Positions 13,286 to 40,189 of a DNA stretch of 64,000 nt are shown here, one piece after another. The number at the start of each line of letters is the position of its first letter. The stretch's first letter is position 1. This DNA is from Planctomycetota bacterium (GTDB lineage: Bacteria > Planctomycetota > Planctomycetia > Pirellulales > UBA7805), in contig QQVP01000134.1 of the NCBI GenBank assembly GCA_003389215.1, positions 9,850-73,849 of the forward strand, in the 5' to 3' direction. The notes under the pieces were generated by a model. The model saw nothing but the letters and a program-made list of their open reading frames with translations. It had not been told where the DNA came from and did not search any database. A program made the translations under genes and the position numbers.

Positions 13286-14536
13286 ATGGCCACCGCGACT
13301 CCGCTCGCCAAAGACAACGTCGCTCGGGTCCTCGATCGCGCGATGGACGCCGCCGCGGGCATCTTGAGACTCACTCCGACCTGGGTGCCCCGCAGTTTTC
13401 TGCACCCTGGAAAGCGCCTGAAGCTCGCCCCCGGCGACTATTACGCCTATGGGGCGCACCGTGGCGGGATCGACGAGCGCTGGTTTGCCAGTACCACGGA
13501 AGCCGCCAATGAAGGCCGTCTCGACGACGAAGGACTCAGCTACGTCACTTTCGAAGGCCAGCGATTCCTGCTGCGCGACGCCGTCGACGAGGCGGGCGAA
13601 CGGCTCATCGGCGCCGCCATCTTCAGCAAGTACAACCGTTGGCCCGTCTATTCGAAGTTTTTCGACAACATGGGCCCGATCCCGCATCACATGCACCAGG
13701 GCTTCGAAGACGCCAAGCTCGTCGGCCAGGAAGGCAAGCCCGAGTCGTATTACTTCCCGCCGCAGTACAACAATTGCGACAACAACTTTTGTTACACCTT
13801 CATGGGGCTCGAGCCGGGTACGACCAAGGATCAGCTCCGCAAGTGTCTCGAGAATTGGAGCCAGGGTGACAACGGCATTTTGGATCTCTCCAAGGCCTAT
13901 CGCCTCAAACGCGGCACCGGCTGGTTGATTCCGCCAGGCGTGTTGCACGCGCCGGGCTCGCTGCTGACCTACGAACCGCAATGGGGCAGCGACGTGTTCG
14001 CCATGTTCCAGTCGCTGGTCGAGGGACGCGAGGTGCCGTGGTCGCTGTTGGTCAAAGACATGCCCGATGACAAACATCAGGATCTCGACTTCATCATCGG
14101 GCAACTCGACTGGGAGAAGAACGTCGATCCGAACTTCAAGGATCACAATTACCTCGAGCCGATCGTCGACGAGAGTTGCTCGGGCGATGGCTACACCGAT
14201 CGCTGGATCGACTACGGAACGGTCAACGGCGAGCAACTCTTCTCGGCCAAGGAGCTGACCGTCGAGCCGGGCGCCAAGTGTGTCTTGCGCGATCCGGGGG
14301 CCAGCGGCTGGATCACGGTGCAGGGGAGCGGTCGCATCGGCGAATTGCCGCTGCAAACGCCTGCCATGATCCACTTCGGCGAGGAGACGGAGGACGAAGT
14401 CTTCATCACGGCCGAGGCGGCGACGGCGGGGGTCGAAATCGAGAACACCGGCAGCGAACCACTCGTCTCGCTCCGCTACTTCGGGCCGGACGTCCACGCC
14501 AGCATGCCCGAGGTGGGCGACTACCGAACTGGTTGA
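13286..14536 (+). CDS. cupin-fold protein resembling the type I phosphomannose-isomerase family (putative sugar/sugar-phosphate isomerase)
   Basis: Two motifs parallel the PMI class I topology: AYGAHRGGIDERW (cf. WMGAHP) and WPVYSKFFDNMGPIPHHMHQ (cf. PFLFKVL..LSIQVHP). Function is inferred only. Confidence 0.45.
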   Translation: MATATPLAKDNVARVLDRAMDAAAGILRLTPTWVPRSFLHPGKRLKLAPGDYYAYGAHRGGIDERWFASTTEAANEGRLDDEGLSYVTFEGQRFLLRDAVDEAGERLIGAAIFSKYNRWPVYSKFFDNMGPIPHHMHQGFEDAKLVGQEGKPESYYFPPQYNNCDNNFCYTFMGLEPGTTKDQLRKCLENWSQGDNGILDLSKAYRLKRGTGWLIPPGVLHAPGSLLTYEPQWGSDVFAMFQSLVEGREVPWSLLVKDMPDDKHQDLDFIIGQLDWEKNVDPNFKDHNYLEPIVDESCSGDGYTDRWIDYGTVNGEQLFSAKELTVEPGAKCVLRDPGASGWITVQGSGRIGELPLQTPAMIHFGEETEDEVFITAEAATAGVEIENTGSEPLVSLRYFGPDVHASMPEVGDYRTG

Positions 14537-14796
14537 TGCGGGTTCTTCTCGCACCGTGTGTCTCGCCGGCGACCGGCGGTGGACCTGGTCAGGCTGCTTT
14601 CAGGGTGCGACGTGGAACTCCCTCGCGTATAATGGACGACGGCTTTGCGGCTTGGTCCCTAGGACGTCCGCGAGCCTCCCGCCCTATTGCGCCGCGAGAG
14701 CAATCCTGCGCCCCGCGGCACGCCCCTGGAGTCTTGTCGCGCCCGCCGGGCACGCAGAGCCCCCACCCCAGCATTCCCGCCCCGATCGAGAACTGC

Positions 14797-17700
14797 ATGA
14801 TGTTCGTCTCTCGTCTTTCGCGTTGTCTCCGTACTTTCCCGATCCTCTGTCGAACCGCTTCGTGCGGTGTCCGCGTCGCGACACTCTCGCTGGCGCTGGC
14901 CCTCTGCCTTGCCGCCCAGCCGAGCCTGGCCGCGGCCCAGTTCGAACTTCAGCCCGGCGACCGAATCTGCATCATCGGCAACGCCCAGGCCGAACGCCTG
15001 CAGCACTTTGGCTATTTCGAAACGGCGCTGCACCGGGCGTTCCCCCAGCATGAACTTGTCGTCCGCAACCTCGGCTGGTCGGCGGACGAATTGACGCTCA
15101 AACCCCGTTCGCAGAACTTCGGCAGCCAGGACGACTACCTGCGGCGCGAGAAGGCGGACGTCATCCTGGCCTTTTTCGGCTTCAACGAGTCGTTCGCCGG
15201 ACCCGCGGGCCTGGCGAAATTCAAGCAAGATCTAACGAAGTTCATTCACCACGCGCGAGGCCAGAAGTACAACGGCGAGAGCGCGCCGCGCCTGGCCCTG
15301 ATCTCACCGCTGGCCCACGAGAACCTGGGCGATCCACATCTTCCCAGTGGCGAGGCCCGCAACGAAGTCCTCAAGCTCTACACCCAGGCGATGGCCGACG
15401 TGGCAGCGGCAGAGAAGGTGCCGTTTGCCAACGTGTTCCAGCCTTCTGAGGCGCTCATGAAGCAGGCGGCCGCGCAGGGCCAGCCGCTGACCATCAACGG
15501 CATTCACCTCAATGACCTCGGCTCGCAGAAGATGGGCCCGGCCCTGATGCAGGCGTTGTTCGGAGACAAGGTGGGCCAGGACGTCGTGGCATCCGATTCG
15601 CCGCTTCGCGCCGCGGTCAACGACAAGAACCTGCACTTCTGGTACCACTACCGCGCGGTCAACGGCTTTTACATCTACGGTGGCCGCTCGCCGCTGTGGG
15701 ACAACGTCAAGGTGATGGAAGTCGAGCGACAAAAGATTGCCGACATGGTCTCGCTCCGCGATCGCGTGGTCTGGGACCTGGCCCAAGGCAAGACACCGCA
15801 GCCGATCGACGATACGCAAACCACGCCACTGATGAAGGTCGAGACCAACTTCCATCGCGAGATCGAGTACCTGACGCCGGAAGATCAGATCAAGACATTC
15901 AACATCCCCGAAGGCTTCGTCGTCGAGCTGTTCGCCTCCGAGCGCGAATTCCCCGAGCTGAAGAACCCGGTGCAAATGGCCTTCGACGCCCACGGACGAC
16001 TCTGGGTCTGCACGATGCCGTCGTATCCGCAGTATCAGCCACCCAGCGAGGTGAACGACAAGCTGCTCATCTTCGAGGATACCGACGGCGACGGGCGGGC
16101 CGACAAGCGAACCGTCTTTGCCGACGGGCTCCATGTACCGACCGGCTTCGAGCTCGGCCATGATGGAGTCTACCTGGCCCAGCAGCCGAACCTGATGTTC
16201 CTCAAGGACACCGACGGCAACGACGTCGCCGACGAGCGGACGATTATCCTGCACGGCTTCGACTCGGCCGACTCGCACCACTCGATCAGCGCCTTTACCT
16301 GGGGGCCGGGCGGAGCCCTCTATTTTCAGGAGGGCACTTTTCACCACTCGCAAATCGAGACGCCCCACGGTCCCGTGCGGGTGAAGAACGCCGGCGTCTT
16401 TCGCTATGAGCCGAAGAGCGAGAAGCTTGATGTCTTCGTCTCCTATCCGTTCGCCAATCCTTGGGGCCACATCTTCGACGCCTGGGGCCAGAACTTTGTG
16501 GCCGATGCCTCGGGCGGTTCGAACTACTTCGCCGCGGCCTTCTCCGGCCACGTCGAGTATCCCCGCAAGCATCGCCGGATGAACGAGTTTTTCCGTCGCG
16601 AATTTCGTCCCACCGCCGGCTGCGAGATTGTCTCGAGCCGCAACTTCCCCGCAGAGATGCAGGGCGACTACTTGCTCAACAACTGCATCGGATTCCGGGG
16701 TATCGGACGCTACAAGTTCAAGGAGGATGGTTCCGGTCTGGCCGCCACCACGCAGGGGCCGCTGCTGCAGTCCGACGATCCGAACTTCCGCCCGGTCGAT
16801 CTCGAGTTCGGGCCCGACGGGGCGCTTTACTTCGTCGATTGGTACAACCCGTTGATCGGCCACATGCAGCACTCGCTTCGCGATCCCAAACGCGATCATC
16901 GCCACGGCCGCATCTGGCGTCTTCGCAATACGAAGCAGCCGCTGACCGAGCCCGCCAAGATTGCCGGGGCGACGATCTGGGAATTGATCGACCTGCTCTC
17001 CGCTCCCGAGCTTCGTACCCGCTATCGGGCCCGACGCGAACTGGCCCAGCGGGACGAGCAAGAGGTTGCCGACGCGCTCGTGCATTGGGCCACCACGCTC
17101 AGCGGCTCGACCCTGAAGAAGGGCGTCTACCAGGATCAGCTCGAAGCGCTTTGGATGCATCAGACCATCGACGTCGTGAACGAGACGCTGCTGCGCGAGG
17201 TACTCCGTTCGCCCGATCCGCGTGCCCGCGCCGCGGCGACGCGCGTGCTGTGCTACTGGCGCGATCGGATCGACTCGGCGATCGAGCTGCTGACGATTCA
17301 GGCCGGCGATCGACACCCACGCGTGCGGCTCGAGGCGGTTCGTGCGGCCAGCTTTTTTAAGGACCCCCGCGCAACGGAGATCGTGCTCGAATCGCTCGTC
17401 CACCCGCAGGACTACTATCTCGAATACACGACGGGCGAAACGCTGACGACGCTCCGCGACTTCGAGTTCGGCTTGGTCGGATTGCTCAAGAGCGGGCGAC
17501 TGCCGACGGAGCGAATACCGTTCGTCATTCGCCTGGCCGCCAAGCGTGGCAACAGCGACGACCTGGGCTACTTGTTCGATCTGGCGGTCGCCGACGACTC
17601 GCTCTCGGTCGAAGCCCGACGGGCCGCACTCGAGGGGCTCCGCGAAGCGGTACGCTACCGCAACGTACGGCCCAACGCCGACTATCGCCCGCTGGCCGAC

Positions 17701-19167
17701 CTGATCCTGCGGTTGCGTGACGACAACCGCAAGCCGGCCCTCATGGCAGCGCTGAAGCTCATCGGCCTGTTACGCGTCAGGGCGGCTGAGCCGCAGCTCA
17801 TCGAACTGGCCCTCGACGATCAACTCGCCGGCGCAATCCGTCGTGCGGCACTCGATGTCCTCGTGGGATTCAACTCCAACCGAGGACGCGCCGCCATCGT
17901 CAAGCTCACGTCGCCCGATCGTCCGCTTGCCGAACGTTACATGGCCATTGGCGTGCTCACGCGGGTCGACGTGGCGGAAGCGGCCCGGCGAGCCGGTCAG
18001 GCGCTGACAGAGGCCGACGGAGCGACCGACCCCGCCAGGCTGATCCAGGCATTCCTGCAGCGGCCCGAGGGAGTCAAACAACTGGCCGCCGCGCTCGAAG
18101 GCGTCGAGCTCGACCAGGATGTCGCGAAACTCGCCCTACGGGCCATGTACGCGGTCGGTCGTAGCGATGCGGAACTGACCAGCATGCTCACCAAGGCCGC
18201 CGGCATTCAGACCCAAGCCGCAGAGCTAAGCGACGAGGAAGTCGCCAAGCTGGAGTCCGCCGTTCGCAACTCGGGCGATCCGGCCCGCGGAGAGCAAGTA
18301 TTTCGCCGCGCCGATTTGAGCTGCATGAACTGTCACGCCCTGGGCGGGGTTGGCGGCGGCGTGGGACCCGAGCTGACCGCCGTCGGCTCGAGTTCGCCGG
18401 TGAAGTACCTGATCAACGCGATTCTGCTGCCGGACAAGGAAGTCAAGGAAGAGTTTCGCATGGCGCACGTCTACACGGCCGACGGCCGCGCGCTCAAGGG
18501 CATCATTCACGAAGACGGCGAAGACCGGCTCGTGCTGAAGGATGCCACCGGACGCCGCACCGCCATCGCGAAGGCCGACATCGACGATCGCGAAGACGGC
18601 GGCTCGCTGATGCCCAAGGGCCTCGTTCAGTTCATGACGCAGCGAGAGCTCGTCGACCTGGTTCGCTTTCTTTCCGAGCTCGGCCGCGACGAGAGCTACA
18701 AGGTTCGCAACACCCCCACGGTGCGGCGCTGGCGGGTGCTGGCCGAAGTCGACTCCGAGCTGACCCGCGAGGTGCCCAACGAGGAAGTCTTTACTGACAA
18801 GGTGCTGGAGCTCGACGGCAGCTCGTGGCGGGCCGCCTATTCGATGACCGGCGGGACGCTGCCGCTCGACGAGTCGGTGGCCCCGGCCGACCAGGACGTG
18901 CTCTACCTGCAGTTCGAAATCGACGTCGACTTCGCCGGCCAGCTCGACATCATCGCCGACTCGCCAGCGGGGCTGACCATGTGGGCCGACGATGTGCAGC
19001 TCGACTTCGCCGAGCGAGAGCCCAAGACGGTGGGCGACTTCGCAGAGGGCCGGCACCGGATTACGATTCGCGTCGATCGCACGCGGCGTGACACCGACAC
19101 GCTGCGCATCGACCTGCGTCGGATCGAGGGCTCGCGAACCCGCGCACGCTTGGTCGCGGGGGTTTAG
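14797..19167 (+). CDS. large secreted multidomain protein: SGNH/GDSL-like hydrolase domain, PVC-type membrane-bound dehydrogenase (beta-propeller) domain, HEAT repeats, C-terminal cytochrome c domain
   Basis: Start at MMFVSRLSRCLRTFPILC... (signal). ICIIGNAQAERL...GWSADE (SGNH-like); FVVELFASEREFPELKNPVQMAFDAHGRLWVCTMPSYPQYQP (Pirellula/Verrucomicrobium dehydrogenase N-terminal domain); many HEAT-like repeats; CMNCHALGG heme-binding CXXCH. The upstream in-frame ORF extension 14176-14796 is non-coding-like. Confidence 0.8.
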   Translation: MMFVSRLSRCLRTFPILCRTASCGVRVATLSLALALCLAAQPSLAAAQFELQPGDRICIIGNAQAERLQHFGYFETALHRAFPQHELVVRNLGWSADELTLKPRSQNFGSQDDYLRREKADVILAFFGFNESFAGPAGLAKFKQDLTKFIHHARGQKYNGESAPRLALISPLAHENLGDPHLPSGEARNEVLKLYTQAMADVAAAEKVPFANVFQPSEALMKQAAAQGQPLTINGIHLNDLGSQKMGPALMQALFGDKVGQDVVASDSPLRAAVNDKNLHFWYHYRAVNGFYIYGGRSPLWDNVKVMEVERQKIADMVSLRDRVVWDLAQGKTPQPIDDTQTTPLMKVETNFHREIEYLTPEDQIKTFNIPEGFVVELFASEREFPELKNPVQMAFDAHGRLWVCTMPSYPQYQPPSEVNDKLLIFEDTDGDGRADKRTVFADGLHVPTGFELGHDGVYLAQQPNLMFLKDTDGNDVADERTIILHGFDSADSHHSISAFTWGPGGALYFQEGTFHHSQIETPHGPVRVKNAGVFRYEPKSEKLDVFVSYPFANPWGHIFDAWGQNFVADASGGSNYFAAAFSGHVEYPRKHRRMNEFFRREFRPTAGCEIVSSRNFPAEMQGDYLLNNCIGFRGIGRYKFKEDGSGLAATTQGPLLQSDDPNFRPVDLEFGPDGALYFVDWYNPLIGHMQHSLRDPKRDHRHGRIWRLRNTKQPLTEPAKIAGATIWELIDLLSAPELRTRYRARRELAQRDEQEVADALVHWATTLSGSTLKKGVYQDQLEALWMHQTIDVVNETLLREVLRSPDPRARAAATRVLCYWRDRIDSAIELLTIQAGDRHPRVRLEAVRAASFFKDPRATEIVLESLVHPQDYYLEYTTGETLTTLRDFEFGLVGLLKSGRLPTERIPFVIRLAAKRGNSDDLGYLFDLAVADDSLSVEARRAALEGLREAVRYRNVRPNADYRPLADLILRLRDDNRKPALMAALKLIGLLRVRAAEPQLIELALDDQLAGAIRRAALDVLVGFNSNRGRAAIVKLTSPDRPLAERYMAIGVLTRVDVAEAARRAGQALTEADGATDPARLIQAFLQRPEGVKQLAAALEGVELDQDVAKLALRAMYAVGRSDAELTSMLTKAAGIQTQAAELSDEEVAKLESAVRNSGDPARGEQVFRRADLSCMNCHALGGVGGGVGPELTAVGSSSPVKYLINAILLPDKEVKEEFRMAHVYTADGRALKGIIHEDGEDRLVLKDATGRRTAIAKADIDDREDGGSLMPKGLVQFMTQRELVDLVRFLSELGRDESYKVRNTPTVRRWRVLAEVDSELTREVPNEEVFTDKVLELDGSSWRAAYSMTGGTLPLDESVAPADQDVLYLQFEIDVDFAGQLDIIADSPAGLTMWADDVQLDFAEREPKTVGDFAEGRHRITIRVDRTRRDTDTLRIDLRRIEGSRTRARLVAGV

Positions 19168-19326
19168 AGCGCGTCTCGTTTATCTCTAGCGTCTTGGCGG
19201 GCTACGACTGCGTTTGACGTCGTCGACCTGCATCGACGAATCTACCAATTCGTCTGCTTCGGTCTGGTGGCCAAACTTGCCTCGCCTACGCCAACGACGC
19301 GACACCTGTCCTAGACACGCTCTAGT
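19165..19326. repeat. copy B of the conserved intergenic element with terminal inverted repeats (TAGAGCGCG ... CGCTCTAG)
   Basis: See copy A. Spans exactly from the TAG stop of the upstream plus-strand gene to the CTA (TAG) stop of the convergent minus-strand gene. Confidence 0.7.
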
Positions 19327-20605
19327 CCCCGTAGATATGATCCCGCTTGGCCTTGTTGTAGGCCAGCTTTTCCGCCTGCGTCATGGCGGCGAAGTTGGGC
19401 GGGTTCTCCGGATCGTAGACCACCGCCTTCGACCCGTCGCCGCAGCCACCCGGGGCCCCGTTGCAGCCGCAGCCGCAATCTTTCTTCTCTTTCTTGCCTA
19501 CCCTCGTGCGCCCAGGCTGCGGGCTACTTTCGCTGGACCCCACCGGCACGCCCGCCGGTACGACGACCTGACCACCACTGGCGTAGCTCATCACGGCCGT
19601 CTGCAACTGCAAGTCATCGGCCAGCGATCGCAGGGGACGGATGCCCAGCTTCTGCAGCACGCCGTGATAGGCCCGCACTGCTTCCTCGGGCTCGATCTCG
19701 CCGTCGGCCAGCATACGCAGGAACTGTACAAAGGCCAGCTGGCACTCCGAGTTGTTGATTTTGCGGCCGAACAGCGCCGCCCGGGCGCCGTACTTCTTGG
19801 CTTCGTAAAGCAGCTTGAAGGCGTCGAGCGTGGTGCCGCTGCTGCCGCCCAAAATGCCGACGACCAGGTGCGGGTCGTAGGCCACCAGGTCTTCCATCGC
19901 CTGGGGACCCTGATACACCATCTTCAGAAAGACCGGCCGTCCCGGCATCGCCACGCCCGCCAGGGTCCGTGCGATGTGGTCGTTCACAAAATCCGGAATC
20001 ATCTCGGGCGAGAGCCCGTCGGGCATGTTCGGATTGAAGATTTCCAGAAAGTGGCGAAACCCCTTTCGCTCCGCCTCGATGCGAAAACAGCGGTACGCCT
20101 CCAGCGTGCGGAGGTCGTCGTCCAGGCGGTTGTTGAACGTGACGCTATAGAGGCCCAGGTTCGCGCCACGAAAACGGTCTTCTGCACTGCAGTCGACGTG
20201 GCCGCACTGGATGTGATCGAGCGTGGCCGTGCGAAACGGCTGAGCGGGCGCTTCGAGATACTTGCCGCCGCGGACGACAAACACATCGCTGGCGTCGTTG
20301 GCCCGTGCGGCCGGCGTGATCGGCGAGTCGTCGAACAGTCGTTCGACGATGGTGAGGACGTCGTTCGTGCTGGCCGACATCAACATGATGTCGACGAGCC
20401 CCTGCCGGACGATCTGCCGGATCTGTTCGCGGTACTCACCCAGCGTCTTGAAACGAACCTCGTCGGCGTGGCTCTCCGGCGATTTGCCAGGCGCCCCGAT
20501 GCCAAAGGCCATGTCGGCGTCCTTGGCGTCGGCCAGGATGAAGTCCTTCGCGCCGTGCGGGTCGGCGTGAATGTTGGCCAGTTTTTGGTCGAGGGTCTTC
20601 TGCAT
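19322..20605 (-). CDS. DhnA/FbaB-type class I aldolase family protein with Cys-rich C-terminal tail
   Basis: LFGRKINNSE and FLKMVYQG motifs parallel E. coli FbaB (ILGRKAFKKS, LVKLNH). The tail KKDCGCGCNGAPGGCGDG is followed by a putative amphipathic helix. It is the last gene of the BMC operon. Confidence 0.6.
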   Translation of the reverse strand: MQKTLDQKLANIHADPHGAKDFILADAKDADMAFGIGAPGKSPESHADEVRFKTLGEYREQIRQIVRQGLVDIMLMSASTNDVLTIVERLFDDSPITPAARANDASDVFVVRGGKYLEAPAQPFRTATLDHIQCGHVDCSAEDRFRGANLGLYSVTFNNRLDDDLRTLEAYRCFRIEAERKGFRHFLEIFNPNMPDGLSPEMIPDFVNDHIARTLAGVAMPGRPVFLKMVYQGPQAMEDLVAYDPHLVVGILGGSSGTTLDAFKLLYEAKKYGARAALFGRKINNSECQLAFVQFLRMLADGEIEPEEAVRAYHGVLQKLGIRPLRSLADDLQLQTAVMSYASGGQVVVPAGVPVGSSESSPQPGRTRVGKKEKKDCGCGCNGAPGGCGDGSKAVVYDPENPPNFAAMTQAEKLAYNKAKRDHIYGD

Positions 20606-20684
20606 CGTGGCGATAGGCGGCGGAAAAGCGTACTTCGTGCGGCAGGGCGAGGTGGACGGGGTCGTGAATCGCACTCGCGAACGA

Positions 20685-21608
20685 CTAGCGGGCGGCTCCG
20701 TTTTGCAGGGCGGCCACCACGCGATCGGTGATCGTCTGAATCAGGGCCTCCTGGTCGGCGGTCGCCGCGGGCGCGGCCGCCACGGGCGAACCGTTTGACC
20801 TTGCGACGCCCGTGCTGCCTTGCGGAGCCATCGAGGCCCCGACTCGCTTCATAGTCGGCGGGGCCTCGAACGCCCGACGCTCCACACCGACGCTCGTCCA
20901 GCTGTCGCGGAACAGATCGTTGGCACACACGTCGCAGTTCTCCATCCGCTTTTCGTTGCGCGGATCGCGGAAGCCCCACTTGGCTTTCGTCTCCAGCAGC
21001 TCGCGCTCTTCCTGCTCGGTAAAGTAGTTGACCTTGCCCAGGTCGCGGGCGAGCATCAGCATGCGGCAATAGGCGTCGAGCACCTCGGTCCACCAGTAGG
21101 CCTGCTCGACCGTTTCTCCCCAGCTGACCGTCCCGTGATTGGCCAGGATCACCACGTTCGAGTCCTTCACGACCGGGATGATCGTGTCGGCGAACTTCTG
21201 CGTGCCGGGCGTTTCGTACTTGGTGATCGGCACGTCGCCCAGGAATATCTCAACCTCGGGCAATACGCACTGCGGAATCGGCTCGCGGGCAATCGCAAAC
21301 GCGGTGGCGTGGGGCGGATGGCAGTGGACGATACTGTTGATGTCGTCGCGTTCTTTGTAGATCTGCAGGTGCAGCAGGGCCTCGCTGCTCCGCTTCTTGC
21401 GCCCGGCCAGCTGGTTGCCCTGCATGTCGATCAGGCAGATGTCGTCAGGTTTGAGGAAACCCTTCGAGTGCATTGTCGGCGTGCAGAGAACCTCGCGGTC
21501 GTTGAGTCGATACGTGATGTTGCCGTCGTTGGCGGCGGCAAATCCCTTGTTGTAGAGTCGGCGACCGATGTCGCAGATTTCCTGTTTGATCCGGTGGGCG
21601 TTCTGCAT
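20685..21608 (-). CDS. class II aldolase (L-fuculose-/L-rhamnulose-1-phosphate aldolase-like) with C-terminal encapsulation peptide
   Basis: Class II aldolase/adducin fold (NDGNITYR...HCHPPHATAFA...ANHGTVSWG). ~90-aa C-terminal extension ends in Ala/Pro linker plus amphipathic helix DQEALIQTITDRVVAALQN. Confidence 0.85.
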   Translation of the reverse strand: MQNAHRIKQEICDIGRRLYNKGFAAANDGNITYRLNDREVLCTPTMHSKGFLKPDDICLIDMQGNQLAGRKKRSSEALLHLQIYKERDDINSIVHCHPPHATAFAIAREPIPQCVLPEVEIFLGDVPITKYETPGTQKFADTIIPVVKDSNVVILANHGTVSWGETVEQAYWWTEVLDAYCRMLMLARDLGKVNYFTEQEERELLETKAKWGFRDPRNEKRMENCDVCANDLFRDSWTSVGVERRAFEAPPTMKRVGASMAPQGSTGVARSNGSPVAAAPAATADQEALIQTITDRVVAALQNGAAR

Positions 21609-21716
21609 GGCAATAGTTCCTGGCGGCTTTTCGTGATTCCTGGTTCGCAGTGCGTTACTTGGACTTATCGGTTTCTGGTTCGTCGTGGTGTCGGGACGTT
21701 GGTTGTGGGCATCGGC

Positions 21717-22007
21717 CTACACATCGTCGCAGACGTGTATCGTGTCGAGGATCGCCGCGTTGTAGGCGTCGATCGGTTTCATCTCGGGGTGAAAAGGCAT
21801 GGCCGCTTCACGACTCTCGCTCAACGCGATGAGCGTGTCGGGGCCCGCCCCCAATTCGTCGTAAACGACCAGGGGATCGGCCGTCGTCGTCGCAGGATCG
21901 CCCAGCTCCGCTTCGCTGAGCGGCACCGCCAGGCGATAGGAACCGCCGGCCAGCGTCGGATGACTGCGGCTGAGCGTGACGGTTCCAATGACCTTGGCAA
22001 TTCGCAT
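21717..22007 (-). CDS. BMC vertex protein (EutN/PduN/CcmL family, BMC-P)
   Basis: MRIAKVIGTVTLSRSHPTLAGGSYRLAVPL...PLVVYDELGAGPDTLIALSESREAAMPF; start at internal Met. Confidence 0.85.
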   Translation of the reverse strand: MRIAKVIGTVTLSRSHPTLAGGSYRLAVPLSEAELGDPATTTADPLVVYDELGAGPDTLIALSESREAAMPFHPEMKPIDAYNAAILDTIHVCDDV

Positions 22008-22026
22008 CGTTCTTACTTCCGGGGCC

Positions 22027-22284
22027 TTAGTCACAAATCCCCATGACACTCCACCGCACGGGCGTCGTGTCGCTGTCTAACAACTCGCGCGTGTACCGCC
22101 CGTCGGTCGTGAGCAGCACGCGTTGTCCCGCGCCGGCGCCCAGGGCATCGACGACGATGACCGGTTCGCCGTCGGCCGAGCGGCCATCGGCCATCAACAG
22201 GCGCACGATGAGCAGCTTCCAGCCCTCCATCGAGGCGTGCTTGACCGTGGCGGTCGCGGTGCCGATAACGCGGGCGAGCTGCAT
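22027..22284 (-). CDS. BMC vertex protein (BMC-P) paralog
   Basis: MQLARVIGTATATVKHASMEGWKLLIVRLL...PVIVVDALGAGAGQRVLLTTDG. Its ATG overlaps the TAA of the upstream ALDH gene (TAATG). Confidence 0.85.
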   Translation of the reverse strand: MQLARVIGTATATVKHASMEGWKLLIVRLLMADGRSADGEPVIVVDALGAGAGQRVLLTTDGRYTRELLDSDTTPVRWSVMGICD

Positions 22285-23783
22285 TACGCTTTCCCCAAAA
22301 TCCGCAAGTCGTCGATCAGCGAGCAACGTCGCTCGCGGGTGAAGGTCAGCGGCGTCGTCACGCCCTCGCCGGTCGGGGTGGCGATGGAGAACGACAGATA
22401 GCCTTCGCCGCCCAGCCCGAGCGACGACATGCACGGTCCGTTCTTGACGAACAGGGTCGTATCCATCACGCGACCCATGGTCGTCATGTTTCGCACGTTG
22501 TTCGAGTGGATGATCGCCGTGTGGCGGAAGCCGTGTTCGTGTTTCTGGGCCAGGGCAATCGCCTCGTCGACGTCGCGGCATCGCACGAAGGGCAAGAAGG
22601 GCATCATCTGCTCGACCGGCACGAAGGGATTTGTCTCGTCGGTCTCGCCAAAAATCATCAGCGTGTCGGCCGCGATCGGACGTCCCGCGCCGCGGGCCAG
22701 CACCGACGCGTCCTTGCCCAGGAACTCCTTGCACGGCACGTCGTGCCGATCGGCCCCTTCGCCCACCGAAGTGATGGCGACGCTGGTCAGTTTGTCAATC
22801 TCGCTACAACTGAGCCGCACGGCGCCGGCCCGTTCCATCGACTGCAGCATGCGGTCGAACACGGAGTCGACGACGAAGACCTCCTTCTCGGCGATACAGA
22901 GCAGATTGTTGTCGTACGAGCCGCCTTGAATGATGGCCCGCGCGGCCCGGTCGAGATCGGCCGTCTCGTCGACGACAACCGGCGGATTGCCGGGCCCCGC
23001 CACGATGGCTCGCTTGCCACTGTTGAGCGCCGCTCGCGCCACGGCCGGTCCGCCGGTCACGCAGATCAACTTGACGCCGCGATGGCTGAAGATGGCGTTG
23101 GCCGAGTCGAGTGTCGGCTCGGCGATGACGCAGATCAGGTTGTCGATTCCCAGGTCTTTGGCAATCGCCTGGTTGAATCGCCGTACGCCCTCGGCCGCCA
23201 CGCGTTTGCCGCTGGGGTGCGGATTCACGACCAGCGTGTTCCCGCCGGCGATCATGCTCACGGCGTTGCCGGTAATGGTGGGCAGGCTGTGGGTGACCGG
23301 GGTAATGGCACCAATGACACCAAAAGGGGCGTGCTCGATCACGGCCAGGCCGTGGTCGCCGCTGTAGACGTCGCTCCGCATGAACTCGACGCCGGGCGTC
23401 TTCAGGCCGAGCGTCTTGAGCTTCTCGATCTTGTGTTCCAGCCGGCCGATCTTGGTCTCGTTCATCTCCATCGTGCCGAGTTCGACCGACTGATCGATCG
23501 AGATGCGGCGGATGTGCTTGATGATTCGCTCGCGGTCTTCCAGCGTGCAAGCACTGAGTTGTTCGAAGGCTTCCGTGGCGGCGGCCACCGCTTCGTCGAC
23601 GTCGTGAAACACGCCGTGGCGTCCGTGATAGGACGGGCTCGTGACGGGGGCGGGTACCGCTGCGGCAGCGGAGGCCGTGGACGCACGCGCCGTCGAGGGC
23701 ACGACCGACGGGCCTGCGGGGCTCCCCATCTCCTGTAGGACTTGGGCAACGACGTCACGGACCAGGGCTTCGTTGACGCTCAT
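22284..23783 (-). CDS. CoA-acylating aldehyde dehydrogenase (PduP/EutE-like) with N-terminal encapsulation peptide
   Basis: N-terminal amphipathic helix VNEALVRDVVAQVLQEM followed by a Pro/Ala/Ser linker. ALDH core with catalytic-Cys motif NLLCIAEKE. Confidence 0.9.
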   Translation of the reverse strand: MSVNEALVRDVVAQVLQEMGSPAGPSVVPSTARASTASAAAAVPAPVTSPSYHGRHGVFHDVDEAVAAATEAFEQLSACTLEDRERIIKHIRRISIDQSVELGTMEMNETKIGRLEHKIEKLKTLGLKTPGVEFMRSDVYSGDHGLAVIEHAPFGVIGAITPVTHSLPTITGNAVSMIAGGNTLVVNPHPSGKRVAAEGVRRFNQAIAKDLGIDNLICVIAEPTLDSANAIFSHRGVKLICVTGGPAVARAALNSGKRAIVAGPGNPPVVVDETADLDRAARAIIQGGSYDNNLLCIAEKEVFVVDSVFDRMLQSMERAGAVRLSCSEIDKLTSVAITSVGEGADRHDVPCKEFLGKDASVLARGAGRPIAADTLMIFGETDETNPFVPVEQMMPFLPFVRCRDVDEAIALAQKHEHGFRHTAIIHSNNVRNMTTMGRVMDTTLFVKNGPCMSSLGLGGEGYLSFSIATPTGEGVTTPLTFTRERRCSLIDDLRILGKA

Positions 23784-23889
23784 GATGGTTGTCTCGCTTG
23801 CTGCTTAATCGTGTGTCTTTGTTCAATCTGGCTCGGCGTTGAGTCGGGTTCGGCGGCAGCGGCGATTGGCCGCGCGGCCGGTCAGGGCG

Positions 23890-24201
23890 TTACTGCTCGC
23901 GCGAGTAAACGCAGTGGTTCTCCACGTGTACCGTGTCGACGATGCCGATAATCACCGCGTCGATCGGCAGGTTCTTCGTCTCGGGCGTCAAGCGGGCGCT
24001 CGACCCCTGCGTGATGAGGACGTACTCGCCCTCGCCGGCGCCGATCGTGTCGATCGCCACGAAGGTACGACCCGTGGTGGTCAGACTCTTCCGCTTCTCG
24101 GCTTCCAGGCGATACGGTTCGACGACCATCAGCTTGTGACCGACGACCTCGCCGACCTTCTGTGTCGCCACTACCGAGCCGGTAACTTTTGCTACGAACA
24201 T
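23890..24201 (-). CDS. BMC vertex protein (BMC-P) paralog
   Basis: MFVAKVTGSVVATQKVGEVVGHKLMVVEP...TFVAIDTIGAGEGEYVLITQGSSARL; start at internal Met. The long ORF-track extension is non-coding-like. Confidence 0.85.
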   Translation of the reverse strand: MFVAKVTGSVVATQKVGEVVGHKLMVVEPYRLEAEKRKSLTTTGRTFVAIDTIGAGEGEYVLITQGSSARLTPETKNLPIDAVIIGIVDTVHVENHCVYSREQ

Positions 24202-24244
24202 GTTCGGGTTTCCCGTAGAAGGACGTGGCCCTCTTTCTGAATTG

Positions 24245-24278
24245 CCAGCGCCTAAGTTTCCAGCGCCTAGTTTTCCAG
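24245..24278. repeat. tandem direct repeat CCAGCGCCTAAGTTT / CCAGCGCCTAGTTTT (+CCAG) spanning the ackA stop codon
   Basis: Two adjacent 15-nt units differing at 2 positions. Shares a CTAG(G)CGC core with the repeat upstream of ackA. Confidence 0.5.
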
Positions 24279-25451
24279 GTGTTCTCTTGCTTGCCGGGCG
24301 ACGATGATCTCCTCGTTCGTCGGCACGACCCAAACTTGCACGCGACTCTCCGCCGCGTTGATTTGCGACTCGCCGCGGGCCGCTTCGTTGGCCGCCTGGT
24401 CGAGCACGATGCCAAGCTCGCTCAGCTCCGCACAGACGGCCGCCCGAATGCGGGTGCCGTTCTCGCCAATGCCGCCGGTGAAGACGATCGCATCGGCCCC
24501 ACCCAGCTCGACCAGGTACGCACCCAGGTAGTGCCGCACGCTGGCGATGAACATGTCGAGGGCCAGCTGCGCCTGGTGGTTGCCAGCCGCGGCGGCCTCT
24601 TCCAAGTCGCGAATGTCGCCACTGACTCCGCTGACGCCCAGCAGGCCTCCTTCGTTGGCCATCGCGGCCAGCACCTCGTCGAGCGTCTTCTCCGTCCGCT
24701 TGATGAGCTGGGGCAGGGCATAGGGATCGAAGTCGCCGACGCGATTGTTGTGCGGCAAGCCCGACTGAGGACTCATGCCCATACTCGTGGCGACGCTCGC
24801 CCCGTCGCGAATCGCGGCCAGGCTGCTCGAACCCCCGAGGTGACAGGAGATGATCCGCAAGTCGCGGCGACCCAACAGTTCGTTCATCCGCGTGGCAATG
24901 TAGCAATGGCTCGCGCCGTGGAAGCCCCACTTCCGCACATGAAACTCTTCGGCCCACGAACGCGGAATCGCATACGTCCGATTGCACTCGGGAATCGAAG
25001 CGTGGAAGCCGGTCTCGAACGCCGCCACCAGCGGAATCTCGGGCAACTGCTCGCGCAACTGCCGTATGGCCGCGATGTAGGGTGGGTTGTGGGCCGGGGC
25101 TACTTCGTTCATCTCTTCCATCGCTGCGAGGACGTCCTCATCAATCCGCTGCACGCCGCTCAGGCGGCCGCCGTGAACCGCCTTGAAACCGATCGCCGAA
25201 ACTTCGCCGGCATCCGTCAGGCATCCGTGTTCGGTGTCGGTCAATTGGGCCAGGCACCGTCGCACCGCCTCGGCATGATCGGGCACTTCGGCCACCAGCT
25301 CGTCGCGATACTCGCCGATCTCGGCCACGCAGCGACTTTCCGCCGAGCCGATCCGATCGATTCCGCCACGGGCCAGCTGCCGCTCGTCCGTCATGTCGAA
25401 CAGACGATACTTGAAGCTCGTCGAGCCCAAGTTGGCGACCAGGACCTTCAT
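24267..25451 (-). CDS. ackA: acetate (propionate) kinase
   Basis: [20 protein letters not shown]... full-length acetate kinase. SD AAGGAG 9 nt upstream of the ATG. Confidence 0.9.
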
Positions 25452-25466
25452 GCCGTGTGCTCCTTG

Positions 25467-25506
25467 CTGGTGACTGGGGGCGCTAGTGACGGGGGGCGCT
25501 AGTGAC
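25467..25506. repeat. tandem direct repeat (GGGGGCGCTAGTGAC x2 plus partial third GCTGGTGAC) immediately upstream of ackA
   Basis: On the coding (minus) strand: GTCACTAGCGCCCCCC GTCACTAGCGCCCCC AGTCACCAGC, then AAGGAG SD, then ATG. Confidence 0.5.
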
Positions 25507-25598
25507 CGAGAGGGCCGCCTGTGTGACGGATGCCGCTCAGGCCCTTGCCGCGCGGGCGCGATTCGCCTGCGACCGCGTCACGTCCTTCAAATAGGCCG

Positions 25599-25868
25599 TT
25601 ACTTCAGGTACGCCTCGACCAGACCTTCGGCCGGACGGGGGATCACGTGACTCGAGACCAGCTCGCCGACCTGGTTGGCCGCGTTGGCACCGGCTTCGAC
25701 CGCCGCGCGCACGCTGCCGACGTCGCCTTTGACGATCGTGGTCAACAGGGCGCCGCCGATCTGCACGCGCTTCACGATTTCGACGTTCGCCGCTTTGGCC
25801 ATCGCGTCGGTCGCCTCGACCAACGGCACCAGGCCGCGGGTTTCAATCATTCCGATTGCATGTTCCAT
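25599..25868 (-). CDS. BMC shell protein, hexamer type (BMC-H, PduA/EutM-like)
   Basis: AIGMIETRGLVPLVEATDAMAKAANVEIV...GDVGSVRAAVEAG. Confidence 0.9.
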   Translation of the reverse strand: MEHAIGMIETRGLVPLVEATDAMAKAANVEIVKRVQIGGALLTTIVKGDVGSVRAAVEAGANAANQVGELVSSHVIPRPAEGLVEAYLK

Positions 25869-25982
25869 TGTGTTGTTCCTCAGAGTGTTTTTGAGTCAAG
25901 TTTGCTGAGTGTTTGTTTGCCGGAGGGTCCGTGACGTACGACCCGCAGTGAGGGCCTCAACGTCGACCCCTCGATCACCGCA

Positions 25983-26276
25983 CTACTTGGCGCCCGCCGC
26001 CGGACCGAGGGCAATGTTCAGATCCTCGTGTGGGCGGGGAATCACTTGCACGCTGATCACTTCGCCGACGCGGCCGGCCGCACTGGCTCCGGCGTCGGTC
26101 GCCGCCTTCACCGCCGCCACGTCGCCGGTCACAAAGGCCGACACCATCCCGCTGCCGACTTTGTCCCAGCCCAGAAACTGGACATTGGCAGCCTTCATCA
26201 TCGCGTCGCTCGCCTCGACCAGGGCAATAAAACCCTTCGTCTCGATCATGCCGAGCGCCTCTTGAACTTTTGCCAT
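25983..26276 (-). CDS. BMC shell protein, hexamer type (BMC-H) paralog
   Basis: [36 protein letters not shown]...[13 protein letters not shown]; start at internal Met. Confidence 0.9.
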
Positions 26277-26402
26277 AGCAAGAATCTCCCAAAGAACCAA
26301 AAACCATTTCCTCGAGTGAGGAGTCTGTCAACCAAAGTTGTCTCGTTCGGTGTCCCTTCGCGGGGCGGCTCGGGTCCTCGTCCAACCCGCCGCCCGTTTC
26401 AT

Positions 26403-27068
26403 TTACTGTTTCAATAACTCGCACTTCGTGGCGTGTTCCAAGTCGGCCGCGTTGCCTTCGTCGGTGTCGAGGTGAACTTCCAACTTGCTGGTGGCGTCGG
26501 CCCGCACCAGCAGATCTTCGAGCACAACGCTGCAGCTCGACTCGATGCGCAGGTTCATGCGATCGCCGTTGGCCACGCCAAATCGCTCCGCGTCGGCAAA
26601 GTTCATGTGGACGTGTCGCTCGGCGCGAATCACGCCTTGCTCGAGCTCCACGACACCTGCCGGACCGACCAAGACACAGCCCGGCGTACCTTCGATCTTG
26701 CCGCTGGCGCGAACCGGCGCGTCGATGCCTAGCGAGATGGCGTCGGTAAAGGCCAGCTCCACCTGGCCGTGCGGTCGCGTGGGACCCAGAATGCGGACGG
26801 TCGGCAGCATCCGCTTCCGCGGGCCGACCAGCATCACGGTCTCTTCGGCCGCGTAGAAGCCGTCCTGATAGAGTTCCTTCATGGGCGTCAGCGTACGGCC
26901 CGGTCCAAATAGCGTCTCAACCTGCTCATCGGTCAGGTGGACGTGACGTGCCGAAATGCTCACAACCAGTTCGCGCTCCGGCGCGGCCGCCGGAGCCGGG
27001 GAACGCAACACAATGTCACGGACGATGCGTTCGACGGTGTCACGATCGATGGGGGCGGCATTAATCAT
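26403..27068 (-). CDS. pduL: PduL-type phosphotransacylase with N-terminal encapsulation peptide
   Basis: N-terminal amphipathic helix [17 protein letters not shown] plus PAPAAAP linker, then PduL-fold repeats (ISARHVHL..., [14 protein letters not shown]). Start could also be the upstream Met at 27089. Confidence 0.85.
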
Positions 27069-27116
27069 AGGTGTTTCTCGGGTTGGCAAGGCTCCGCACT
27101 GGGGAGCCCCGATGGG

Positions 27117-27920
27117 TTACGGCTTCCCGGCCGCTTTCGCTTCGCCGAGCGACGGAGCGACCAGCAACTCGACGCCCGAGTCGCGGAGCTGCTCCTGCCA
27201 CGATGAGCTGATCTGCTCGTCGACCACGAGTCGATCGATTTCGTCGAGGCTGCCGACGTGAGCCAGGCTGCGGTGGCCGAATTTGGTGCTGTCGGCAACG
27301 ACGATCACCTCGTCGGCCATTTGGATCATGGCCCGCTGGGTTTCGACCTGTAAGACGTTGCTGTTGTAGTAGCCCTGTTCGTTGATCGCGGCGACGCTGA
27401 TCACGGCGCGACGGACGTTCAACTCGGCCAGCATCCGCGTGGTGTAGGGCCCCATCGTCACGCCGGTTCGCGGGTGAACGTTCCCGCCCACGAATACGAG
27501 ATCGCTGTCGGCGCTCGACGCGAACAGATTCGCCACCGGCATGGAGTTGGTCACCACCTGCAGCGGCCGACCCGCCAGCAGCCGTCCAACTTCATAGGTC
27601 GTGCTTCCGCCGTCCAGAAGCAATGTGTCGCCATCCTCGATCAGTCCGGCGGCAACCTGGGCGATTGATCGCTTCTTGTCCCACTCCGCCTCCTGACGAT
27701 CCTTGAAGTGGGGAAACTCCGGCGAGCCCCCGGTGTAGAAGGCGCCACCGTGAGTCCGCTTCGCGGCGCCCACCTCTTCGAGATGTTCCAAGTCGCGACG
27801 AACCGTCGACTCCGAGACGGCGAGTTCGCCCGCCAGCTCGGGCAGCGACGCGAATCCGCGCGCGCGAACGAGGTCGAGAAGTTGCGAACGTCGATCTTCG
27901 GCAAGCGGTGGGGAGGGCAT
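27117..27920 (-). CDS. DeoR/GlpR-family transcriptional regulator (first gene of the BMC operon)
   Basis: N-terminal HTH (QLLDLVRARGFASLPELAGELAVSESTVRRDLEHLEE) plus DeoR C-terminal sugar-phosphate-binding domain. Confidence 0.85.
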   Translation of the reverse strand: MPSPPLAEDRRSQLLDLVRARGFASLPELAGELAVSESTVRRDLEHLEEVGAAKRTHGGAFYTGGSPEFPHFKDRQEAEWDKKRSIAQVAAGLIEDGDTLLLDGGSTTYEVGRLLAGRPLQVVTNSMPVANLFASSADSDLVFVGGNVHPRTGVTMGPYTTRMLAELNVRRAVISVAAINEQGYYNSNVLQVETQRAMIQMADEVIVVADSTKFGHRSLAHVGSLDEIDRLVVDEQISSSWQEQLRDSGVELLVAPSLGEAKAAGKP

Positions 27921-27941
27921 AGAACCGACGAGAAGATGCAA

Positions 27942-28268
27942 GTGCCTGACGGTACTTAATCAATTCTGGGCGAAAACATGCTCATTTGCAATCTCCTTCT
28001 GGTATTAATATTTCATCATCGTGACGGATATCTTTCATTTGGCCCTCCCCGCTTCAGCCTGGCCGTCGCTTTCTTGAGACGCAAGTCATTTTCATGCAAT
28101 TGGTTACGTCGTCCTAATCGCGGCCACAGCGGGGCTTTGCGGCCTGCTGCAAAGCGACCGATCCGCACCTCGAACAGGGGGGGTATTCAAGCATCCGGGG
28201 CTGCGGCAGAATCGCGAGCCGCGTTGCCGACTCGGCTCGCTCCAGACACCAAGTGGGACCGAAACGTC
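27942..28268. promoter_or_regulatory. AT-rich divergent promoter/operator region between the DeoR-BMC operon and rhaB
   Basis: Markedly AT-rich block (ttgcaatctccttctggtattaatatttcatcatcgtgacggatatctttcatttgg) in a high-GC genome. An 8-bp-stem hairpin GCGAGCCG..CGGCTCGC sits just upstream of rhaB. Confidence 0.4.
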
Positions 28269-29762
28269 ATGGCGGGAAATGCCTACATCGCGATTGATCT
28301 GGGGGCCGAATCGGGACGCACGATCGTCGGCCTCGTCGACCGAGGTCGCCTACATCTGGCAGAGATTCATCGCTTCCGCCATCTCGCGCGGCAACTGCCC
28401 AGCGGTCTGCACTGGGATCTGATGGGCTTGTGGGGCAACATCCTCGAGGGGGTCGCGTGTGCGGTCGACTGGGCCGACAGCCAGGGCCAAACGCTCACCT
28501 CGCTGGGCGTCGACACCTGGGGCGTCGACTATGCTCTGCTGGGCCAGAGCGGTGAGCTACTCGCGATGCCGCACTGTTATCGCGACGAACGAAACAACGT
28601 GGCCTTCGATCGTGCGGTTGAGGCGGTCGGGGCCGAAACGCTCTACGATGCCACCGGCATCCAGCTGCTGCCGCTCAACACGCTCTTCCAGGTGCTCGCC
28701 CAGCACGCGGCCGAACCAGAGCTACTCTCCAGGGCCCAACAGCTACTCTTCATTCCCGATCTGTTGCACTACTTCTTCACGGGTCGGACCACGTGCGAGG
28801 CGACGATTGCGTCGACGAGCCAAATGACCGACGCCCGCACGGGCACGTGGAATCTCGATCTGCTCGCCAAGCTCGCGCTGCCGACACAGATGCTGCAGGA
28901 CATCGTGCCGCCCGGCACGAATGTCGGCACGATCCTTCCGCACGTCGCCGCCGCCACCGGAGCCAGTGAGCAACTGCAGGTCGTCGCCCCGGCATCACAC
29001 GATACCGCCTCGGCAATTGCCGCCGTGCCCGCGGAAGTCGGCACGAGTTGGGCCTACATTTCCAGCGGCACCTGGTCGCTGATGGGCGCCGAGCTTCCGG
29101 GCCCGTGCGTTACCCCCGCGGCCCGCGCGGCGAACTTCACCAACGAAGGCGGCGTCGACGGTACGATCCGTTTCCTAAAGAACCTGATTGGCTTGTGGCC
29201 GGTGCAAGAGTGCCGCCGCGCCCTGGAGAATTCGGGCCAGACGCTCGACTATGCGGCGCTCACCGCGGCGGCTGCGGACGCCGAGCCGTTCCGGACGTTG
29301 CTCGACTTGAACTACCCACCGCTGATGTCGCCGGGCGAGATGCCTCGGAAGATCGCCGACTTTGCCCGGGCAAGTGGACAACCGGAACCGGAGTCGGCTG
29401 GCCAGCTGGTTCGTTGTTGTCTGGAAAGCCTGGCGCTGCTCTATCGTCGCACGCTCGACGAGCTGGAGGCCGTGCTGGAGCGGAAGTTTGATGTGCTGCA
29501 CGTCGTGGGTGGTGGGGGGCGCAATGAACTGTTGAATCAATTCACGGCCAATGCCGTCGGTCGTCCCGTCGTTGTCGGTCCGGAAGAAGCGACCGCCGCG
29601 GGCAATGTCCTCGTGCAGGCCATGGCCGCGGGACAAATCGCCAATCTGGCCGAGCTGCGAAAGGTGGTGCGGACCTCGTTCGAGCCGAAGCGCTACGAGC
29701 CGGAAGACACCGACGCCTGGTCCGCCGCCGCCGCACGGTTCGCAGAGATCATCGGCGGCTAG
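28269..29762 (+). CDS. rhaB: rhamnulokinase-like FGGY-family sugar kinase
   Basis: Start at MAGNAYIAIDLGAESGRTIVG. FGGY N- and C-domains (HVVGGGGRNELLNQFTANA). The 97-codon ORF-track extension is AT-rich non-coding. Confidence 0.75.
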   Translation: MAGNAYIAIDLGAESGRTIVGLVDRGRLHLAEIHRFRHLARQLPSGLHWDLMGLWGNILEGVACAVDWADSQGQTLTSLGVDTWGVDYALLGQSGELLAMPHCYRDERNNVAFDRAVEAVGAETLYDATGIQLLPLNTLFQVLAQHAAEPELLSRAQQLLFIPDLLHYFFTGRTTCEATIASTSQMTDARTGTWNLDLLAKLALPTQMLQDIVPPGTNVGTILPHVAAATGASEQLQVVAPASHDTASAIAAVPAEVGTSWAYISSGTWSLMGAELPGPCVTPAARAANFTNEGGVDGTIRFLKNLIGLWPVQECRRALENSGQTLDYAALTAAAADAEPFRTLLDLNYPPLMSPGEMPRKIADFARASGQPEPESAGQLVRCCLESLALLYRRTLDELEAVLERKFDVLHVVGGGGRNELLNQFTANAVGRPVVVGPEEATAAGNVLVQAMAAGQIANLAELRKVVRTSFEPKRYEPEDTDAWSAAAARFAEIIGG

Positions 29763-40073: not shown

Positions 40074-40189
40074 CGAAGCAGGCTCGTCAGTTGCGATTCC
40101 AGAGGGCCGAGTATGGCCCCATGGTACGCCATCGAGCCGAGCGATCCCACGTGCGTCGAAGATCGGCTCTCCCGCAGTGAGAACCGCGT

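Follow-up and report, generated by a model that had tools for sequence, protein, structure and literature searches.

Gene content of the locus

We examined a 64,000-nucleotide stretch of contig QQVP01000134.1 (assembly GCA_003389215.1), hereafter the window, in which eleven minus-strand open reading frames (ORFs) lie between positions 19322 and 27920 and one divergent ORF occupies 28269-29762. In our reading, which we hold with high confidence, this is the operon of a bacterial microcompartment (BMC) of the Planctomycetes-Verrucomicrobia (PVM) type in a Planctomycetota metagenome-assembled genome (MAG), in a minority variant that lacks PvmO and the PvmL-like gene; its last gene, one without a published name, is referred to here as gene 11. 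The eleven genes and the divergent kinase announced in a preliminary description of this DNA are all present, with coordinates that agree exactly with the annotation of GCA_003390835.1 (contig QQVC01000070.1), the public record of a Planctomycetota MAG. For the gene 11 protein there is a 100% identical counterpart in a 'Planctomycetota bacterium' MAG, which places the host in Planctomycetota. The features of the locus are the following.

27117..27920, minus strand: DeoR-family regulator (PvmA equivalent), first gene of the cluster; PF08220 (HTH_DeoR) and PF00455 (DeoRC)
26403..27068, minus strand: PduL-type phosphotransacylase (PTAC; PvmB equivalent); PF06130, 240 bits, domain from residue 36; NF011652, 243 bits
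25983..26276, minus strand: BMC-H shell protein (PvmD equivalent); PF00936, 92.6 bits
25599..25868, minus strand: BMC-H shell protein (PvmE equivalent); PF00936, 97.6 bits; 52% identity to the other BMC-H
24267..25451, minus strand: acetate/propionate-family kinase (PvmG equivalent); PF00871, 364 bits; TIGR00016, 360 bits, above cutoff
23890..24201, minus strand: BMC-P shell vertex protein (PvmH position); PF03319, 101 bits
22284..23783, minus strand: CoA-acylating aldehyde dehydrogenase (ALDH; PvmJ orthologue); NF011927, the CoA-acylating BMC subfamily of NCBIfam, 627 bits; PF00171 from residue 59
22027..22284, minus strand: BMC-P shell vertex protein (PvmK position); PF03319, 85.5 bits; start overlaps the ALDH stop
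21717..22007, minus strand: BMC-P shell vertex protein (PvmM position); PF03319, 58.4 bits
20685..21608, minus strand: class II aldolase, signature enzyme (PvmN equivalent); PF00596, 175 bits over residues 9-184 of 307
19322..20605, minus strand: gene 11, unnamed enzyme with a class I aldolase fold (DhnA/LsrF-like), 427 residues; no Pfam match
28269..29762, plus strand: FGGY sugar kinase, rhamnulokinase-like, divergent; PF00370 and PF02782; TIGR02627, 455 bits
27921..28268, no strand: divergent intergenic region between the DeoR and kinase genes, 348 bp, presumed regulatory from its position only

Clear Pfam matches were obtained for ten of the eleven genes, and all eleven family assignments made earlier hold by Pfam, NCBIfam or fold. 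Hidden Markov model (HMM) searches recovered the shell proteins as they had been called, PF00936 twice and PF03319 three times, with the three BMC-P paralogues at most 34% identical among themselves. The shell had been described as consisting of BMC-H proteins and three BMC-P proteins without BMC-T, and this was confirmed: the 64-kb window contains no BMC-T gene and no shell gene beyond these five, though a satellite locus could exist in another part of the genome. The label of the kinase as rhamnulokinase-like agrees with its best NCBIfam score, that of TIGR02627.

Relationship to published PVM microcompartments

The PVM locus of Planctopirus limnophila is said to have been characterised experimentally, by Erbilgin et al. 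in 2014. The pvm gene assignments used here were drawn from later papers and supplements, and the reference sequence of PvmJ was taken from the supplement of Axen et al. 2014. In the published type, the class II aldolase is the signature enzyme and the ancillary proteins include a DeoR regulator and an acetate kinase (PMC4207490); the shell set comprises two BMC-H proteins and a BMC-P triplet (PMC8217296 supplement); and the cluster of P. limnophila is pvmABDEGHIJKLMNO (PMC11958385).

Over 440 residues the ALDH of the locus shares 63% identity with PvmJ of Planctomyces (Planctopirus) limnophilus, and the gene order is as published, so that the earlier identification as a PVM-type locus was correct. 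Both loci carry DeoR, PduL, two BMC-H, acetate kinase, BMC-P, ALDH, BMC-P, BMC-P and class II aldolase genes in the same order, with putative encapsulation peptides on the same termini, and neither has BMC-T. They differ in that the locus here has no PvmO-type (Ldh_1_N/Ldh_1_C), PvmL-type or PvmI-type gene, ends in gene 11, which has no entry in the published pvm table, and is accompanied by a divergently adjacent rhamnulokinase-like gene.

To place the locus among its relatives, we scanned one genome per GTDB species with gene 11 as the query, which returned at least 592 relatives, and compared the best 80 loci; the P. limnophila locus is not among these 80. Within this set, members of Pirellulales, Gemmatales, Isosphaeraceae, Planctomycetaceae and Phycisphaerae share the order DeoR-PTAC-H-H-Ack-P-ALDH-P-P-aldolase-gene 11, and the same gene order was found in more than 50 Planctomycetota genomes. 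Some PVM operons hold a third BMC-H gene, either adjoining the other two or placed behind the acetate kinase gene (L039, L046, L052, L061 and L081 from Isosphaeraceae and Planctomycetales; L063, L067, L069, L071, L072, L076 and L078 from Planctomycetales and Phycisphaerae), and therefore the shell set varies within the type.

The preliminary description had suggested that the locus shows features that look unreported. Most of these are in fact in the literature, since the DeoR gene at the head (PMC11958385), the encapsulation peptides (PMC4594438) and the shell set (PMC8217296) have all been published. With the 2021 catalogue listing 285 PVM loci (Sutter 2021), the locus itself adds little to a type of organelle that is characterised experimentally and catalogued in hundreds of copies; what it brings into view is the gene at its end and the gene missing before it.

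Gene spacing and cargo enzymes

The intergenic gaps had been called tight, with a TAATG coupling. The coupling is real, the ALDH stop and the following BMC-P start sharing TAATG at base 22284, while the tightness fits only some of the gaps. The remaining ones measure, in gene order, 48, 126, 114, 147, 65, 106, 19, 108 and 79 bp, and since they span 19 to 147 bp, the spacing is better described as compact than as uniformly tight. The shared strand, the short gaps and the deep synteny support a functional linkage of the genes, which may be co-transcribed.

Amphipathic helices resembling encapsulation peptides had been proposed on three enzymes, and each was located (hydrophobic moments computed over 15 residues):

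23727..23777, minus strand: ALDH N-terminal helix, residues 3-19, followed by a linker of about 35 residues; hydrophobic moment 0.42
27000..27047, minus strand: PduL N-terminal helix, residues 8-23; hydrophobic moment 0.55
20700..20756, minus strand: class II aldolase C-terminal helix, residues 285-303, after a linker of about 70 residues; hydrophobic moment 0.49

All three are moderately amphipathic, lie outside the Pfam domain boundaries and are tied to the domains by low-complexity linkers, which bears out the proposal. Published work describes encapsulation peptides C-terminally on the class II aldolase, N-terminally on PTAC and at a terminus of the aldehyde dehydrogenase (PMC4594438), and by analogy the three enzymes of this locus would be packaged as cargo.

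Proposed pathway of fucose or rhamnose degradation

By orthology with the characterised P. limnophila system, a pathway can be proposed for the locus. The divergent FGGY kinase would phosphorylate L-rhamnulose (or L-fuculose) to give the ketose-1-phosphate substrate, and the class II aldolase with its putative C-terminal encapsulation peptide would act as the signature enzyme. The encapsulated CoA-acylating ALDH would convert lactaldehyde to lactyl-CoA, PduL would form lactyl-phosphate and recycle CoA, and the acetate kinase homologue would yield lactate and ATP, with the DeoR protein presumably regulating the cluster. The kinase scores 455 bits with the rhamnulokinase model TIGR02627 versus 134 bits with the fuculokinase model, whereas the class II aldolase reaches 120 and 108 bits with FucA models versus 58 bits with the RhaD model. 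A class II aldolase homologue from a locus without BMC genes (L088) is only 215 aa long.

At a distance of some 20-25 kb from the BMC operon, the window has two sulfatase genes (PF00884 and SGSH_C), at 47213-48766 on the minus strand and at 51471-52880 on the plus strand. They fit a lifestyle of degrading sulfated polysaccharides that contain fucose or rhamnose.

NAD+ recycling and the absence of PvmO

In the PVM reference model, PvmO, a member of the lactate/malate-dehydrogenase family, is the published surrogate for NAD+ recycling. When ORFs were clustered, 45 of 55 related loci proved to have a PvmO-type gene, confirmed by Ldh_1_N and Ldh_1_C, between the aldolase gene and gene 11; it is missing in the other ten, the locus here included, which is a minority architecture without PvmO. 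A search of the operon and the whole 64-kb window by tblastn with three PvmO representatives found no homologue. Gene 11 was considered as a candidate for PvmO itself and rejected, PvmO being the Ldh_1_N/Ldh_1_C protein that stands between the aldolase gene and gene 11 in most loci.

Of 53 related loci, 25 have a gene at the PvmL position; for the PvmL-like gene, too, the 64-kb window contains no homologue. The earlier characterisation of the locus as complete was thus too strong, because neither PvmO nor the PvmL-position gene has a homologue in the 64 kb. It follows that NAD+ regeneration must come from elsewhere. The earlier remarks that the operon contains no alcohol dehydrogenase gene, and that recycling may be encoded elsewhere, both stand: no alcohol dehydrogenase was found in the window, and PvmO is absent from it. 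About one in five related operons has no copy of the dehydrogenase proposed for NAD+ recycling inside the shell, which bears on the question of cofactor regeneration. In the loci that have it, the PvmL-position gene lies between the second and third BMC-P genes (L010:6836-7693, L044:6980-7684); it shows a weak RpiB/LacAB match (E 2e-4), and its N-terminus resembles an encapsulation peptide, e.g. VDVDAVVREVLRRL and EELVNQVVANVLSAL.

Gene 11 has the fold of a class I aldolase

Gene 11 had been labelled a DhnA-type class I aldolase-like protein, and a fold search together with a profile alignment to LsrF confirms the label, though without Pfam support. In NCBIfam only weak matches to LsrF and ADH synthase were obtained (E 0.003-0.008, far below the cutoffs). 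An AlphaFold model from 53 homologues (predicted local distance difference test, pLDDT, 76) is an eight-stranded beta/alpha barrel with a disordered segment at residues 339-376 and a confident terminal helix at residues 410-425, and the fold search found this (beta/alpha)8 barrel closest to the DhnA/DeoC-LacD class I aldolases. Using a 28-sequence family alignment, hhalign matched gene 11 to LsrF with a probability of 84% and an E of 8e-6; K228 falls on the Schiff-base lysine K203, and the phosphate loops ILGG and GRKI fall on IAGG and GRNI. Since the LsrF alignment matches both K228 and the phosphate loops, we consider the DhnA-type label right, even though HMM search could not confirm it. 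The candidate Schiff-base lysine K228 (19922-19924) is invariant in the 53 sequences and kept in nearly all of the broader 28. The match to LsrF is significant only with the broader alignment; with the narrow 53-sequence alignment it was insignificant (E 0.015), and the same narrow alignment failed against a DeoC-family aldolase from L056.

The DhnA/DeoC-LacD family (PF01791) includes the ADH synthase of M. jannaschii, LsrF of E. coli, archaeal fructose-bisphosphate (FBP) aldolase, LacD and the sulfofructose-phosphate aldolase YihT. With these enzymes gene 11 shares the barrel, the Schiff-base lysine on beta-6 and the phosphate-binding loops on beta-7 and beta-8. However, PF01791 does not match it, its identity to them is only 12-18%, its core is about 340 residues long compared with 250-290, and the Planctomycetota members add a variable linker, often with CxC...CxC, and a conserved C-terminal helix.

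Distribution and C-terminal tail of gene 11

Thousands of close relatives of gene 11 are annotated as hypothetical, and one from Schlesneria paludicola bears the name "beta/alpha barrel domain-containing protein". When 1.84 billion representatives were searched with a profile, 1421 relatives were recovered, 383 of them at E <= 1e-30. In the PVM operons gene 11 is conserved as strongly as the core enzymes (55-75% identity), and its terminal position is kept across at least five orders. Most Planctomycetota PVM operons end in this gene, whose strongly conserved product has no Pfam family and does not figure in the accessible published pathway models: the HMM table of the 2021 catalogue does not list it under the named pvm genes, and no description of it was found in the accessible PVM literature, a scope that does not extend to Erbilgin et al. 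2014. In Schlesneria, a relative of Planctopirus, the gene stands alone, and this position, from which we infer that of the P. limnophila homologue, may explain why the pvm nomenclature ends at pvmO.

Other relatives consist of the core only (about 330-340 residues) and have neither linker nor helix. Their genomic contexts, ordinary sugar operons, include a D-lyxose-isomerase-family (Lyx_isomer) gene, a PfkB kinase, the homologue and an AraC regulator; an ABC sugar transporter, an FGGY kinase, a Zn-dehydrogenase, a GlpD-like oxidase, the homologue and a DeoR regulator; a short class II aldolase, a 2-hydroxyacid dehydrogenase, the homologue, an FGGY kinase and permeases; and an epimerase/isomerase fusion gene that at its end runs into the start of the homologue. 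In L056, an Acidobacteriota MAG, a PfkB kinase and a DeoC-family aldolase precede the gene 11 homologue. The homologues in this MAG and in L051 (a Candidatus Sumerlaeota MAG) are full-length and keep the helix, with no BMC genes within 10 kb. On a metagenome contig, a 727-residue fusion of the gene 11 core with a PfkB kinase (P0244 / L085:4165-6348) lies beside FAA hydrolase, aminotransferase and PIG-L genes.

In Planctomycetota members the tail of gene 11 comprises a Pro/Ala/Ser linker that varies and a helix that is conserved, PDFxxMTxxEKLAYxxxxRxRIFG. Two elements were located in the locus here:

19442..19477, minus strand: four-cysteine motif of gene 11, CxC...CxC
19328..19399, minus strand: conserved C-terminal helix of gene 11; hydrophobic moment 0.42

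Among 29 copies that immediately follow the aldolase gene, 18 have the CxC...CxC motif, whereas it is found in none of nine copies whose upstream sequence is free of BMC genes for 5 kb or more. The terminal helix is distributed differently, being kept in stand-alone Planctomycetota copies (the nine BMC-free loci, and S. paludicola on an Mb-scale assembled contig) and missing from core-only homologues in non-BMC operons. The tail recalls cargo extensions of MUF2, MIC6 and a further locus type of Sutter 2021, in which a six-Cys domain with a C-terminal encapsulation peptide and 4xCys extensions compare with the disordered linker, four cysteines and helix of gene 11. Unlike those extensions, the helix of gene 11 is conserved in sequence and not in pattern alone, and it persists away from BMC genes; for these reasons we treat the term encapsulation peptide as provisional for gene 11. 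The candidate reading of the helix as a classical encapsulation peptide was not adopted, since stand-alone Planctomycetota copies keep it.

Candidate role of gene 11

Because a sugar kinase is a recurrent partner and the lysine and phosphate loops are conserved, gene 11 probably acts on a phosphorylated ketose, most simply as an aldolase that releases dihydroxyacetone phosphate (DHAP). A second ketose-1-phosphate aldolase linked to DHAP is the most likely function predicted for it. Since the class II aldolase leans towards FucA while the adjacent kinase is rhamnulokinase-like, gene 11 could supply a second stereospecificity; it could cleave L-rhamnulose-1-phosphate, the product of the adjacent kinase, with the FucA-like class II aldolase taking L-fuculose-1-phosphate. 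If gene 11 is indeed a second aldolase, or is encapsulated, the accepted scheme of fucose and rhamnose degradation in these polysaccharide degraders, which are of ecological importance, would be incomplete.

Weighing of alternative explanations

The locus might belong to some other aldolase-bearing metabolosome (PVM-like and GRM5-related, or MIC4, with aldehyde dehydrogenase, PTAC, class II aldolase and acetate kinase) that processes another sugar-derived aldehyde. MIC4, ACI, MUF2 and PVM-like loci also have a PF00596 aldolase with a C-terminal encapsulation peptide, several of them together with a BMC-P triplet, and both the aldolase and the kinase here fall below equivalog cutoffs. However, the close identity of the ALDH to the P. 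limnophilus PVM enzyme, a gene order that is exactly that of PVM and a Planctomycetota host all argue otherwise; MIC4 carries BMC-T and PduS/PduT, none of which is present here, and PVM-like loci occur chiefly in Firmicutes and with a different gene order. We regard this alternative as very improbable. The assignment to the PVM type, which we prefer, nevertheless has several results weighing against it or against its parts. The kinase score lies below the TIGR02627 cutoff of 528 bits and the aldolase is below every equivalog cutoff, and for this reason the substrates are named here by analogy only. No fucose- or rhamnose-specific isomerase, FucO or transporter was seen in the 64-kb window, and PvmO is absent from it. 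Gene 11 has no Pfam match at E <= 0.01, PF01791 included, and no sequence match in the PDB by profile search, and it also occurs away from BMC genes in some Planctomycetota. Promoter and terminator scans of the cluster were uninformative about transcription. The scan for sigma-70-like sites, a consensus scan not tuned to Planctomycetes, found none in any cluster gap or in the DeoR-kinase spacer; terminators were not above chance (11 found versus 8.5 +/- 2.5 expected), with no convincing minus-strand one inside the cluster; and a repeat search of the cluster and the DeoR-kinase spacer found nothing notable.

The eleven genes may also form more than one transcript, either a monocistronic DeoR gene followed by a ten-gene operon, or units started by internal promoters in the gaps of 106-147 bp. 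In P. limnophila, the DeoR gene pvmA heads the cluster 46 bp from pvmB, a promoter is predicted in this spacer, and a two-transcript model with a separate pvmA transcript has been proposed (PMC11958385); the corresponding gap here is 48 bp, and five gaps exceed 100 bp. Set against the lack of sigma-70-like sites in the gaps and of a convincing internal terminator, this arrangement has in our estimate a real chance, if somewhat less than an even one. For gene 11, two placements have to be compared. It may have no part in the organelle pathway and be a sugar-phosphate enzyme of the cytosol, a mere hitch-hiker at the operon's 3' end, with, for instance, DHAP salvage or the conversion of another ketose phosphate as its task. 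In favour of this are the helix-keeping copies that stand alone in Schlesneria paludicola and in the nine loci free of BMC genes for at least 5 kb upstream, the core-only homologues in non-BMC sugar operons, and the absence of the protein from the published pvm nomenclature table. Against it are the same-strand terminal position 79 bp after the aldolase gene, kept across at least five orders, a conservation equal to that of the core enzymes, and the bias of the CxC...CxC motif towards copies downstream of the aldolase gene. We consider a cytosolic placement plausible, at roughly one third of the weight. The other placement would make gene 11 an overlooked component of the PVM organelle, a class I ketose-1-phosphate aldolase and second signature enzyme tethered through its linker, cysteine motif and helix. 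Since copies occur away from BMC genes, gene 11 may not be a dedicated organelle component, and this full proposal we put forward as speculative and rather unlikely.

Other genes in the window

Convergent with gene 11, a plus-strand gene at 14176-19167 encodes a protein of 1456 aa (public record) with GDSL lipase, DUF7133 and HEAT-repeat regions, and it ends 155 bp from the gene 11 stop. On the minus strand, one large ORF at 36783-40577 combines a 3-keto-disaccharide hydrolase domain, NANM/Kelch repeats and a sodium:solute symporter domain, a fusion that may be over-extended. It adjoins a gene for a SASA-type sialate O-acetylesterase at 41642-43282 on the same strand.

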